Assembly: GCF_002854065.1 (NCBI RefSeq)
Contig: NZ_CP024147.1
DNA length: 64,000 bases
From: Escherichia coli
Lineage (GTDB): Bacteria; Pseudomonadota; Gammaproteobacteria; Enterobacterales; Enterobacteriaceae
Strand: one strand, 5' to 3'
Made by a program: the position numbers. This document shows positions 41,205-44,200 of the stretch, piece after piece (position 1 is the stretch's first letter; every line of letters begins with the position of its first letter).

Positions 41205-44200
41205 TGACCACTTCATGTCGTTGAACTGCATAATACTGGCCCAAGCACCGCAACCAGTCTTGCTGCGCTTATCGCTTTATGTTCGATATTGCTGGCAAAA
41301 CCAGTACAGGAACAGATGGTGGTGTTGGGCAGTATGACGCTTGGTGGAGTAATTAACCCGGTACGCCCTGCAGCATCCGGAATGCAGCGCCATTATGCGC
41401 ATCATCGACTGAATGGAGAGAAGCACAATGCAACAACTTTCCTTTCTGCCCGGAGAGATGACGCCCGGCGAGCGCAGCCTCATTCAACGGGCCCTGAAAA
41501 CCCTGGACCGCCATCTTCATGAACCCGGCGTGGCCTTCACCTCCACCCGTGCAGCACGGGAATGGCTGATTCTGAACATGGCGGGACTGGAGCGTGCAGA
41601 ATTCCGGGTGCTGTATCTGAACAACCAGAATCAGCTGATTGCCGGTGAAACCCTCTTCACCGGCACCATCAACCGCACGGAAGTCCATCCCCGGGAAGTG
41701 ATTAAACGCGCCCTGTACCACAATGCCGCTGCCGTGGTACTGGCACACAATCACCCGTCCGGTGAAGTCACACCCAGTAAGGCAGACCGGCTTATCACCG
41801 AACCTCTGGTACAGGCACTGGGCCTGGTGGATATCCGGGTGCCGGACCATCTGATAGTCGGTGGCAACCAGGTTTTCTCCTTTGCCGAACATGGTCTGCT
41901 TTAACCCGTCACAACCACATCACACCTGTTTTCACTTTTATCTTCTGTCTTCAGAGGTATCCCATTATGAAAATTATCACCCGTGGTGAAGCCATGCGTA
42001 TTCACCAACAACATCCGACATCCCGTCTTTTTCCGTTCTGTACCGGTAAATACCGCTGGCACGGCAGTGCTGAAGCGTATACCGGTCGTGAAGTGCAGGA
42101 TATTCCCGGTGTGCTGGCCGTGTTTGCTGAACGCCGTAAGGACAGTTTTGGTCCGTATGTCCGGCTGATGAGCGTCACCCTGAACTGAGTGGGAATTCTG
42201 ATGAGCAGAATTATCGCCACTACCGGACCATTCTTAGCCGATTTTCTGTAAGGATTTTATCGTGTCAGACACACTCCCCGACGACAATCACGACCGCCCC
42301 TGGTGGGGGCTGCCCTGCACAGTGACGCCCTGTTTCGGGGCACGTCTGGTGCAGGAGGGTAACCGGTTGCATTACCTTGCCGACCGCGCCGGTATCAGAG
42401 GCCGGTTCAGCGATGCGGATGCATACCATCTGGACCAGGCCTTTCCACTGCTGATGAAACAACTGGAACTCATGCTCACCAGCGGTGAACTGAATCCCCG
42501 CCATCAGCATACCATCACGCTGTATGCAAAAGGGCTGACCTGTGAAGCTGATACTCTCGGCAGTTGTAGTTTCGTTTATATGGCTGTTTATGCTACCCGA
42601 TTCTCAAATCAATTACCGAAAGCTTCTGTTCATCAACTAACTCATTACTTTTAATGATGGGGCCCTTTCTGGGGCCCAAGAAATTAACAACGCTAACAAA
42701 CAACATAAATAACAATAAATTAAATAAAAAATTTCATTCCTGCAGGGGACCATCCTTGTGTTTATCCCTAAAACCACATAAAAACCGTAAATTAAATTCG
42801 AACTAGCAGGCCGAATAAGGCACACCAGGAACTCGTGGTTTTATTCATTATGAAGTGGTTTTTACCTGTTCTCTTAGCCAGGTAATAAACGCTTCAATTT
42901 TTGGCCACTGCCTGCCCGGTAATGTGGTGATGTAATAATGCTGATGGCATTTCACCGTCATATCGCCAAACGGCGCGACGAGCTCACCACTGGCAAGCCT
43001 TTTTTGTACCAGGCGTTTTCTTCCCATCGCCACCCCAACATGATTCATTGCGGCGATAACGGCTAAATCAGAGCGATCAAAGCCAATTCCAGAAGATGTC
43101 GGCAAATTAACCGCATAATGTTGCGCCCAACTATGCCATTCATCCGTTCCGGAGTCGTTGCTCCATGCCTGTCTGTCATGGAGCAACGTACAGTGGCGCA
43201 GGTTAATTACCGTGTTGCTTAAAGCATGTCTTTGAGCGTATTCCGGGCTACATACAGGCAGGATTTCTTCATCCATCAGAAAGTGATGAGTCAGTTGCGC
43301 TGACGGCGCGTCATCAAAGTAGATTGCCAAATCGATTCCGGCACGTTGCAGATTGACATTGTCATTACCAGTGAGCACGGTGAGCGAAATAGACGGATAG
43401 CGGCGTGTAAAGTCACCTAATGCGGGCACCAACCAGCATTGAGCGATAGAGGGCCGGGAATACAGAGTTAACGTTCCCGATAACTCCTGATTTTTGATAT
43501 CAAGAATTTCCTGGTTCAGGGTATCCAGCGACGATTTTAGCGCCCAATAAACGCGTTTCCCCTCGTGCGTTAATTCCACTTTGCGATGGGAACGAACAAA
43601 CAACTGAATACCCAATTCTTCTTCCAGCTGATTGATACGGTGACTTACCGCACTGGGGCTCAGCGACAATTCCTCTGCCGCCAGGGCGAAGGACTGATGC
43701 CTGGCAGCCACTTCAAAAGTATGCAGTTTTGATAGTTGCCAGCCGTTAAGCAGTCGATTTCTTATTTCACGAAGGGGTTCCATAATCACCTCATTTTTCT
43801 CTTAAGTGTAAAAAAATAGCGGCAAAATTTCAGCTGTAAGGTGAGCTAAAGTGAACCATATCTCAATTTACCTTCATTTTTAGATGTAAATCACTCACTT
43901 GATGCAATTTGTCTCATGTGAAAGGCAAATTTTATCGTTTGTCAGCCTGTGTTGTTTTTTTGTCCAATATCATCAGGTTAATCACAGGGGAAGGTGAGAT
44001 ATGCACTCTCAAATCTGGGTTGTGAGCACGCTGCTTATCAGCATCGTGTTAATTGTACTGACCATCGTGAAGTTCAAATTCCACCCGTTTCTGGCGCTGT
44101 TGCTGGCCAGCTTCTTCGTGGGAACGATGATGGGCATGGAGCCACTGGATATGGTAAATGCTATTGAAAGTGGAATTGGCGGAACGCTGGGGTTCCTTGC

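Follow-up and report, generated by a model that had tools for sequence, protein, structure and literature searches.

Escherichia coli genomic islands of the CP4/P4 type can carry genes for type IV antitoxins of the CbeA (YeeU) family, and one such gene lies at the edge of an island without a toxin gene after it. Does this arrangement record a deletion in one strain, an inherited island end or a functional orphan? We addressed the question in a stretch of 64,000 nucleotides of E. coli DNA (the window). An earlier note on this DNA had considered both an orphan antitoxin giving anti-addiction protection and a simple deletion scar. The features on which our analysis rests are collected in Table 1.

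Table 1. Features at the two ends of the argW island and in its distal operon (positions in the window).
Feature	Position	Strand	Basis and remarks
argW tRNA-Arg(CCT)	2593..2667	+	ARAGORN; 3' end (2649-2663/2667) = attL core
Island integrase, tyrosine recombinase	2816..4033	+	Pfam Arm-DNA-bind_3, Phage_int_M, Phage_integrase
BrxL (Lon-like, BREX) C-terminal fragment	41211..41361	+	PADLOC BrxL positions 572-628 of 680, E 4.3e-14
Antirestriction (yfjX/lfgA-like) gene, last 51 bp	41362..41412	+	Homology to intact loci begins at 41362
yeeS-like RadC/JAB gene	41428..41904	+	158 aa from ATG 41428; PF04002, E 2.5e-42
yeeT-like DUF987 gene	41967..42188	+	73 aa; PF06174, E 1.9e-39
Orphan cbeA/yeeU-family type IV antitoxin gene	42262..42654	+	130 aa, GTG start; PF06154, E 1.1e-52
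C-terminal extension of CbeA	42598..42654	+	18 codons, R113-F130, plus TAA stop; DNA/protein alignments
Conserved GC hairpin GGGGCCC-TTTCT-GGGGCCC	42659..42677		RNA fold of 42640-42760
AT-rich att-proximal segment (probable arm)	42655..42735		28-38% GC
attR core	42736..42750	+	Direct repeat of argW 3' end, 15 bp
dsdC, chromosomal flank	42848..43789	-	RefSeq annotation of matching genomes

A yeeS-yeeT-cbeA module at the island edge

The distal genes follow the K-12 yeeS-yeeT-cbeA module in order, strand and spacing, and Pfam matches and protein identities agree with the assignment yeeS-yeeT-yeeU proposed earlier for 41428-42654. The first product is 98.6% identical to K-12 YeeS and 76% identical to YfjY/LfgB. 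Its PF04002 match spans 41413/41428-41904, a second in-frame ATG being present upstream at 41413, and its translation contains the JAMM-type H-x-H-x(10)-D metal motif HNHPSGEVTPSKAD, as in other RadC/JAB proteins. Protease activity has been reported for LfgB (PMC10846083); for the window protein, in which we read the metal-site motif from the translation, this activity is putative. The DUF987 protein is 100% identical to K-12 YeeT. Antisense ORFs over yeeS, yeeT and cbeA gave no Pfam match.

The third gene, with a Shine-Dalgarno sequence (AAGGA) before its GTG codon, encodes a member of the CbeA/YeeU family that matches its profile at full length. Residues 13-112 align with positions 1-100 of the 101 in PF06154 (CbeA_antitoxin) at 177 bits, against a cut-off of 27. 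The core is 92.7% identical to K-12 CbeA at the protein level, and residues 3-116 match the sequences of PDB 2INW and 2H28 (E ~1e-71). Close to the 5' end the gene has a strain-specific in-frame deletion of 15 bp. The exact 130-aa protein is on record as WP_199560496.1, and an exact-protein contig look-up of this allele returned no record. We infer that the product still works as an antitoxin of the CbeA type. Describing all three genes as an antitoxin trio went too far: CbeA is the only antitoxin among them, and in K-12 CP4-6 the genes upstream of the antitoxin neither neutralised the toxin nor affected toxicity (PMC5371832).

The operon is truncated upstream of these genes. A BrxL fragment directly follows an IS911::IS30 nest, in place of the normal upstream genes; in strain CUWW06, PGAP annotates the same place as 'peptidase S16, incomplete'. 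The 51 bp at 41362-41412 correspond to positions 6001-6051 of locus L001, the end of its antirestriction CDS (5566-6051). The window operon lacks the remainder of the antirestriction gene, the DUF932 gene and the promoter region before them; strain CFSAN061762 is one in which the order DUF932-antirestriction-RadC-DUF987-CbeA is intact. No promoter-like site was found on the plus strand in 41000-42262, and predicted promoters and terminators were no more numerous than in shuffled sequences. With the BrxL fragment and the IS911::IS30 nest standing where the promoter region and first half of the operon used to be, expression of the orphan cbeA in this strain is doubtful.

The antitoxin gene has no toxin partner

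A tblastn search with K-12 CbtA and YeeW against the whole 64-kb window gave no homolog (best E ~1), which bore out the earlier statement that no CbtA/YeeV-type toxin gene follows the antitoxin. The small ORFs around 42650-42750 had been named in advance as the place where a toxin might emerge on reanalysis, and none did: every small ORF in 42640-42850 crosses the att core or overlaps cbeA out of frame. Three candidates were rejected individually. Neither the ORF at 42654-42806 nor that at 42637-42825 matched Pfam, and both extend beyond the att core into host sequence. The third, at 42542-42640, would encode a hydrophobic peptide of 32 aa from a GTG start; it lies inside cbeA out of frame and is not conserved in locus L006 or Salmonella, where the alignment shows no start codon and an early stop. 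An Rfam search at E values up to 1 returned only a chance CrcZ match far below threshold.

Since there is no CbtA or YeeW homolog and attR follows the stop codon after only 81 bp, the locus is not a toxin-antitoxin system; it is the antitoxin half alone. The adjacent, co-oriented CbtA-family gene of the two-gene type IV CbtA/CbeA system is absent. An intact 130-aa ORF with no toxin in the island or the window is instead what defines an orphan antitoxin of the YagB kind.

The orphan gene abuts the right end of an argW island

The island extends from 2649 to 42750, roughly 40 kb, within argW. An integrase with an arm-DNA-binding domain lies by argW, and the 15-bp argW 3' sequence (ATTCCTGCAGGGGAC, at 2649) is repeated at the far end, the organization of a tRNA-integrated CP4/P4-type genomic island. 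The attR core begins 81 bp past the orphan cbeA stop codon (42652-42654), in agreement with the ~80 bp given earlier, and is 2 bp (AC) shorter than in other strains. In genomes with an empty site, argW is joined to dsdC exactly at attR, where the match to the query begins. Beyond dsdC lie dsdX and then dsdA.

Two features occupy the interval between stop codon and attR. A GC hairpin sits just 3' of the stop; no T-run comes after it and it was not called as a terminator. E. coli variants and Salmonella preserve its stem but differ in the loop. The whole 42655-42735 segment accompanies the element in E. coli and Salmonella alike, and this carriage, together with its base composition, suggests that it is the int-distal arm of the recombination site.

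Sequence on this side of the gene also encodes the C-terminus of the antitoxin. The earlier note had the last ~25 residues diverging; the divergence is real but smaller, as alignments and Pfam coverage mark only the last 18 (113-130) as foreign. These residues have no counterpart in canonical CbeA, and the Pfam domain and the final beta-strand (..FVYMAVY) are kept before them. DNA homology to K-12 cbeA stops 4 codons ahead of the canonical stop, and in the alignment the CGA at 42598-42600 takes the place of the TGA that ends an L003-type sister allele. The frame and length of the tail vary by allele, giving at least four different C-terminal endings. The alignments identify the tail as read-through into the att-proximal sequence, which was formerly non-coding.

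A low-confidence AF2 model built from a 7-sequence alignment (mean pLDDT 54) predicted the order strand-strand-helix-strand-strand-strand, the one expected of the YeeU fold solved in 2H28, 2INW and 2EA9, with residues 113-130 disordered. Tail DNA is 89% identical between E. coli L006 and Salmonella, near the dS of 0.11. Among 30 cluster members, none of ~20 variants fell in the tail, a number too small to compare constraint on tail and core and not significant.

The toxin-less junction is shared by E. coli and Salmonella islands

A blastn search with the tail found the junction of cbeA, tail, hairpin, AT-rich segment and att in 270 of 5426 complete E. coli genomes (~5%), one copy in each. All 270 copies lie under a YeeU gene, and none of the 5426 genomes has the tail away from one. 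The cbeA-to-dsdC junction is present in 259 genomes. At 99% identity or more, the identical junction was recovered from 241 E. coli genomes, and diverged junctions (75-89%) occur in other E. coli and in Salmonella. The chromosomal flank differs among these islands: in Salmonella enterica argW islands the same right end adjoins pgtE, and in other E. coli it adjoins the csc locus. The dominant allele, of 135 aa, is found on at least 1000 contigs with its ORF intact. Just before cbeA, the variants of L006 and Salmonella have an additional gene of 214 aa that is not in the window.

Because the junction is common to 270 E. coli genomes and to Salmonella argW islands, the absence of the toxin predates the spread of the element and did not arise in this strain. 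This distribution contradicts the proposal that the locus is simply a deletion scar. Comparison of the junctions indicates that the toxin was absent before the element family spread and that the toxin-less end is its native, inherited right end. One island family has spread across E. coli and Salmonella without a toxin. To speak of toxin 'loss' is to infer it from the family norm: two pattern scans of species-representative genomes, the first of which would also miss the Salmonella variant, and a third scan, of viral contigs, turned up no ancestral argW island in which the tail goes with a toxin. For annotation, the gene is best read as an orphan CbeA/YeeU antitoxin at a fixed argW-island terminus, and not as a broken toxin-antitoxin pair or a strain-specific deletion.

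The orphan gene is a recombinant with mixed signs of constraint

The window differs from K-12 CP4-44 by 0.4% from yeeS to mid-cbeA (up to ~42403; 4 substitutions in ~920 bp) and by 8.8% beyond that point (19 in 216 bp). The substitution map against K-12 places a recombination breakpoint inside cbeA, between 42321 and 42404. Recombination with a copy of the CP4-44 type has overwritten part of the gene body, and the breakpoint illustrates how CP4-type islands swap distal modules by recombination.

Signs of constraint were found in one lineage and of decay in another. The cbeA cores of E. coli L006 and Salmonella differ by 8 synonymous and 2 non-synonymous changes (dN/dS 0.07). Among the divergent-type loci sampled, cbeA is frameshifted in five of six next to intact RadC and DUF987 genes, so the orphan is dispensable at least in that sister lineage. 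Rare alleles change residues that are invariant in the family (G31R/W, D56Y and Q72P). Recent gene conversion by a toxin-linked copy, and not selection on the orphan, may explain why the window-type allele is intact and has a low dN/dS.

A possible role in trans

CbeA-family antitoxins cross-neutralise all three K-12 toxins, CbtA, YkfI and YpjF (PMC5371832), and the targets of CbeA are FtsZ and MreB and not the toxin itself (PMC5624674). An antitoxin that acts on the target and not on the toxin is expected to give broad cross-protection. We lean towards the view that the locus is the native right end of a CP4/P4-type argW island whose operon stops at a working orphan CbeA able to buffer toxins in trans. 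The island carries the usual distal operon of antirestriction, RadC/JAB, DUF987 and CbeA genes, which in this element family stops at the antitoxin, with cbtA and yeeW absent and the last cbeA codons joined straight to the AT-rich att arm. As family members protect FtsZ and MreB polymers and bind no particular toxin, the orphan copy could buffer in trans the CbtA-family toxins of sister islands, which almost all of these genomes carry.

Indeed, cbtA-like genes occur elsewhere in 59 of the 60 orphan-bearing genomes listed, a proportion no higher than the species base rate for cbtA (92%), so we claim no enrichment; a second dsdC copy carried by some strains may have raised the count of 'places' in this co-occurrence test. 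Anti-addiction protection against related toxins is plausible, and any selection for a trans-buffering role would be weak. In K-12 the toxins of the family show weak expression and deletion of the antitoxins is possible (PMC5371832), so the anti-addiction benefit may be small. Proof that the orphan guards against the toxins of sister islands would make it a clean case of type IV anti-addiction in nature.

A stronger version, which we consider unlikely, holds that the argW island family of E. coli and Salmonella carries a toxin-less CbeA as deliberate cargo, a trans 'immunity' against the CbtA-family toxins of rival CP4-type islands. Hosts would then be able to put up with rival islands or to shed them, without any addiction to the argW island itself, and the tail and the conserved hairpin would be parts of the recombination arm of the element. 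The orphan might also oppose further inhibitors of division whose target is FtsZ or MreB.

Three alternatives compete with a working orphan at a native island end. The first, which we regard as a real possibility but would not expect to be correct, is that cbeA is a neutral remnant with no function of its own, persisting between the selected genes yeeS and yeeT and an att arm needed by the element, and refreshed by recombination with toxin-linked paralogs of sister islands. The frameshifts beside intact neighbors, the recombination tract ending within cbeA, the allele-dependent frame and length of the tail, the decapitated operon of the window and the radical substitutions in segregating alleles all fit this account. 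Against it stand the intact ORF of the dominant allele, the excess of synonymous changes in the intact Salmonella/L006 lineage and the full-length Pfam domain.

It is very improbable that another, unrecognised toxin partner lies nearby, whether a small ORF in the tail and att region, an out-of-frame ORF or an upstream gene. The 32-aa hydrophobic ORF overlapping the cbeA 3' end and the 214-aa gene before cbeA in L006 and Salmonella could be cited in its favor, but the former is not conserved and the latter is absent from the window. The ORFs over the att core and the Rfam search offered no better candidate, and the upstream genes of CP4-6 had no effect on toxicity. Least credible of all is a recent deletion of cbtA-yeeW between the cbeA 3' end and attR in the ancestry of this genome: canonical islands do place the toxin between antitoxin and att, and a deletion of a few hundred bp would be enough, but the identical junction in 241 genomes, its diverged versions in E. 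coli and Salmonella and the restriction of the tail to YeeU genes oppose it.

Comparison with known CbeA loci

Orphan CbeA homologs such as K-12 YagB and cross-neutralisation within the family are already known, and the window gene is an ordinary orphan antitoxin. Its closest relative is CbeA (YeeU) of K-12 CP4-44, the partner of CbtA (YeeV). This antitoxin belongs to the fold family of PDB 2H28, to which the window protein is linked by sequence, and is likewise encoded in yeeS-yeeT-cbeA order and strand. After cbeA, CP4-44 has an 88-bp spacer, cbtA and yeeW, all three of which the window lacks, whereas the window gene has an 18-residue foreign tail that the CP4-44 gene does not. The window module belongs to an argW island with its own integrase; CP4-44 has no integrase (PMC5371832).

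The YafW/YkfI pair of CP4-6 and the YfjZ/YpjF pair of CP4-57 share with the window an operon layout by the att site, at 60-65% identity for CbeA and 76-81% for RadC. The CP4-57 operon reads yfjX(lfgA)-yfjY(lfgB)-ypjJ-yfjZ-ypjF. Both pairs keep a toxin between antitoxin and att, where the window has none: ypjF ends 189 bp short of the CP4-57 end, and ykfI adjoins thrW. YfjZ/YpjF-type modules also have an operon promoter upstream of lfgA (PMC10846083), which the window has lost.

YagB of K-12 CP4-6, only 63% identical to the window CbeA, has been proposed as an orphan antitoxin without a neighboring toxin (PMC5371832), and RefSeq annotates it as such. As in the window gene, read-through into neighboring sequence has replaced its C-terminus immediately past the final strand (..YVYIAI). 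The two orphans differ in setting. YagB was orphaned inside CP4-6, next to IS fragments (ISX, IS30B and IS1B), and is not known from a conserved element terminus found in more than one genus, whereas the window gene lies at the att-proximal end of an element, in a terminus common to E. coli and Salmonella.

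The toxin-less trio and the island edge

The earlier note described a yeeS-yeeT-yeeU-like gene trio without a toxin gene, and alignment with the K-12 yeeSTUV-type loci supports this description. Three co-oriented genes within 41428-42654, each with a plausible Shine-Dalgarno sequence read from the DNA, match the expected families. The K-12 element CP4-44 is closest, with protein identities of 98.6% for YeeS, 100% for YeeT, and 92.7% for the CbeA core, whereas the CP4-6 and CP4-57 paralogs are more distant (60-81% identity). In a sequence comparison, residues 3-116 of the CbeA homolog match two solved YeeU structures, 2H28 and 2INW (E about 1e-71); the protein is already in RefSeq as a YeeU-family antitoxin. 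Membership tests place the product in the CbeA family and among orphan antitoxins and the element among tRNA-integrated islands; by the criterion that defines a two-gene TA system, the locus is not one. The island also carries a complete Shango anti-phage system (11270-17094, - strand, PADLOC).

Features of the argW island discussed in the text
Feature	Coordinates	Strand	Evidence or remark
argW tRNA-Arg(CCT)	2593-2667		3' 15 bp repeated at far island edge
Integrase, arm-DNA-binding domain	2816-4033		just after argW
SngC, DEAD helicase	11270-13468	-	PADLOC E 7.1e-277
SngB, BrxC/D-like ATPase	13465-14781	-	PADLOC E 1.3e-187
SngA, TerB_N/TerB_C	14785-17094	-	PADLOC E 6.5e-103
BrxL C-terminal fragment	41211-41361		upstream of operon remainder; PADLOC E 4e-14
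RadC/JAB gene (yeeS-like)	41428-41904	+	PF04002, E 2.5e-42; second in-frame ATG at 41413
DUF987 gene (yeeT-like)	41967-42188	+	PF06174, E 1.9e-39
CbeA/YeeU-family antitoxin gene	42262-42654	+	PF06154, E 1.1e-52, profile positions 1-100 of 101

No CbtA/YeeV-type toxin gene follows the antitoxin, as the earlier note had reported: tblastn with K-12 CbtA and YeeW found no homolog in the whole 64 kb (best E about 1). Nor did the small ORFs of 42640-42850 yield a toxin candidate. Those between the cbeA stop and dsdC continue through the att core into the host chromosome or sit within cbeA in another frame; Pfam matched neither of the two scanned, and the out-of-frame ORF is unconserved in the E. coli argW-island locus L006 and in Salmonella. 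An Rfam search found nothing.

The 3' 15 bp of argW (ATTCCTGCAGGGGAC) recur at 42736-42750, 81 bp past the cbeA stop codon, with dsdC/dsdX/dsdA beyond. Because argW and dsdC are joined exactly at this point in empty-site genomes, the proposed island end about 80 bp past the antitoxin, at attR, is correct. The attR core (42750) has a strain-specific 2-bp (AC) loss relative to all other aligned loci. A GC hairpin (GGGGCCC TTTCT GGGGCCC, 42659-42677) lies directly 3' of the stop, and its stem is conserved while its loop varies among E. coli variants and Salmonella. It lacks a following T-run on both strands and is therefore no canonical terminator. The 81-bp AT-rich segment with this hairpin is most simply the putative int-distal arm of the attachment site, in which the hairpin may be a protein-binding site.

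The toxin-less end is common to an island family

The cbeA-to-dsdC junction occurs in 259 of 5426 complete E. coli genomes. The tail alone (42572-42735) was found in 270 genomes of this set, at a single place in each and always under a YeeU antitoxin gene; its identity to the window is 99% or more in 241 and 60-90% in 29. We compared diverged versions of the locus (L003, L006, L007, L008, L016, and L017) together with L002, a csc-adjacent locus of the window type. All are at argW, toxin-free, and adjoin dsdC or the csc sucrose locus. Salmonella enterica islands encoding a 141-aa CbeA homolog have the same right end but adjoin pgtE instead. This shared end comprises the cbeA tail, the GGGGCCC hairpin, the AT-rich stretch, and the core ATTCCTGCAGGGGACACCA. 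The flanks differ but the element end stays constant, so the missing toxin is a trait of the mobile element that was in place before the element spread. The earlier suggestion of a simple deletion scar is not supported as an event in this strain, since the same junction recurs in the 270 E. coli genomes and in Salmonella with another flank. We did not find a toxin-bearing ancestor: the tail has no other location in E. coli, and pattern scans gave no match in either species-representative genomes or viral contigs. That the argW island family ends without a toxin as a fixed trait, in E. coli and Salmonella alike, is new here.

Beyond cbeA and the att core, the csc strains (L002, L003, L006, and L007) have a DUF4942 gene fragment and then cscB-cscK-cscA, preceded by the apparent left end of a second, decayed island. 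This arrangement looks like tandem island remnants at argW.

Mosaic origin and C-terminus of the orphan

Substitutions relative to CP4-44 are unevenly distributed. Only 4 occur across 41480-42403 (about 0.4%), versus 19 in the 216 bp of 42385-42600, all at or beyond 42404 (8.8%), and the identity profile has the same low-then-high divergence pattern. This jump in divergence places the end of a recombination tract, which spans yeeS, yeeT, and 5' cbeA, within cbeA itself, at some point from 42321 to 42404. The orphan is thus a recombination mosaic, in part a recent copy of a toxin-linked allele, which is also new here. Near its 5' end (42271-42276), cbeA lacks 15 bp in frame (GTTLP), a strain-specific deletion between ACACTYCCCG direct repeats; a single contig carries this allele (WP_199560496.1).

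The reported divergence of the antitoxin C-terminus is real, but DNA alignment gives its length as 18 residues rather than about 25. Homology to K-12 runs to ...GCTGTTTAT CCGACGCCCG and ends 4 codons short of the canonical stop; residues 1-112 are family sequence, and canonical CbeA has nothing equivalent to residues 113-130 (RFSNQLPKASVHQLTHYF). In the alignment, CGA at 42598-42600 takes the place of the TGA stop with which the L003-type sister allele would end at canonical length (..AVYTAPVVP*). Further alleles end, for example, in ..PTPAAPRLSNQISNRKLRLIN* and ..PTPAAPPIIKPNQ*, and the Salmonella allele in ..PTPVAPPILKPNQQTKASIHQLTKYF*. These differing ends and the CGA/TGA alignment show that the tail is read-through into former 3' non-coding DNA, with neither frame nor length conserved. 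Tail DNA differs by 11% between L006 and Salmonella, close to dS (0.11), so the tail evolves about neutrally. The "divergent C-terminus" is thereby newly explained as an unconstrained 18-residue read-through. In an AF2 model of low confidence (pLDDT 54), the strand-strand-helix-strand-strand-strand core is retained and residues 113-130 are unstructured.

Evidence for and against function

Several findings favor a functional orphan. The PF06154 domain is full length in the window allele, at least 1000 contigs carry the dominant 135-aa allele (WP_001389100.1), and the cores of the L006 and Salmonella orphan alleles differ by 8 synonymous and 2 non-synonymous changes (dN/dS 0.07). Against function, cbeA is frameshifted in 5 of 6 sampled divergent-type loci with the adjoining RadC and DUF987 genes intact, rare alleles have radical substitutions at otherwise invariant residues, and the intactness of the window type may simply come from the recent conversion tract. 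In the L006/Salmonella module, DUF987 and cbeA are separated by an additional gene of 214 aa (L006 2980-3624; L010 4306-4950), annotated as DUF8835 by PGAP and unmatched in a Pfam-A scan, with a dN/dS (about 0.5) above that of its neighbors.

The operon is also truncated on its 5' side in the window strain, a further new observation. Homology to the intact operon begins only at 41362, so that no more than 51 bp remain of the antirestriction gene, from its 3' end, and upstream, beside the BrxL fragment, lies an IS911 interrupted by IS30. In CP4-57, the sequence upstream of yfjX/lfgA reportedly drives and regulates the operon (PMC10846083). With the 5' part gone and no promoter-like site found upstream of the trio on the + strand, expression in the window strain is uncertain. 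Within 36837-41361, BREX remnants flank an IS nest; besides the BrxL fragment, they include a short "alkaline phosphatase" fragment near 36837-36950 (annotated in the near-identical strain CUWW06) that is possibly PglZ. Between them are IS2 (about 37418-38691) and IS911 (38822-41207), the latter split by IS30 (transposase at 39141-40292), an arrangement suggesting that IS elements destroyed a BREX system.

An orphan antitoxin could act in trans. CbeA reportedly counters CbtA not through contact with the toxin but by stabilizing assemblies of FtsZ and MreB, and it likewise counteracts other FtsZ inhibitors (PMC5624674). YkfI, YpjF, and CbtA are each neutralized by any of YafW, YfjZ, and CbeA; genes upstream of the antitoxin give no neutralization, and these toxins are weakly expressed and their antitoxins deletable (PMC5371832). 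cbtA-like genes are present in 5014 of 5426 E. coli genomes (median 3 places per genome), and one or more such loci lie elsewhere in 59 of the 60 orphan-bearing genomes listed, as counted with a chimeric query joining tail, att, and dsdC to K-12 cbtA. CUWW06, the window's closest relative, has one. Given family cross-neutralization and these loci, a trans-protective role is possible. Co-occurrence in the listed genomes is not enriched over the base rate, and the selective value of trans-protection is likely small.

Comparison with known orphans

The toxin-less trio at the island edge is real, was correctly observed, and is ordinary in kind. In E. coli, orphan antitoxins are reported to be abundant (PMC10790755). 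Among known cases, K-12 YagB comes closest, a proposed orphan CbeA homolog (PMC5371832) annotated in RefSeq as "orphan antitoxin YagB". As in the window CbeA, its final codons are replaced by read-through into adjacent DNA, there an IS fragment: in the K-12 yagB locus (L013 4386-4736), the break falls just past the last beta-strand (..YVYIAI), and about 13 codons run into an adjacent ISX fragment. The 3'-end junction of yagB is thus of one kind with that of the argW orphan.
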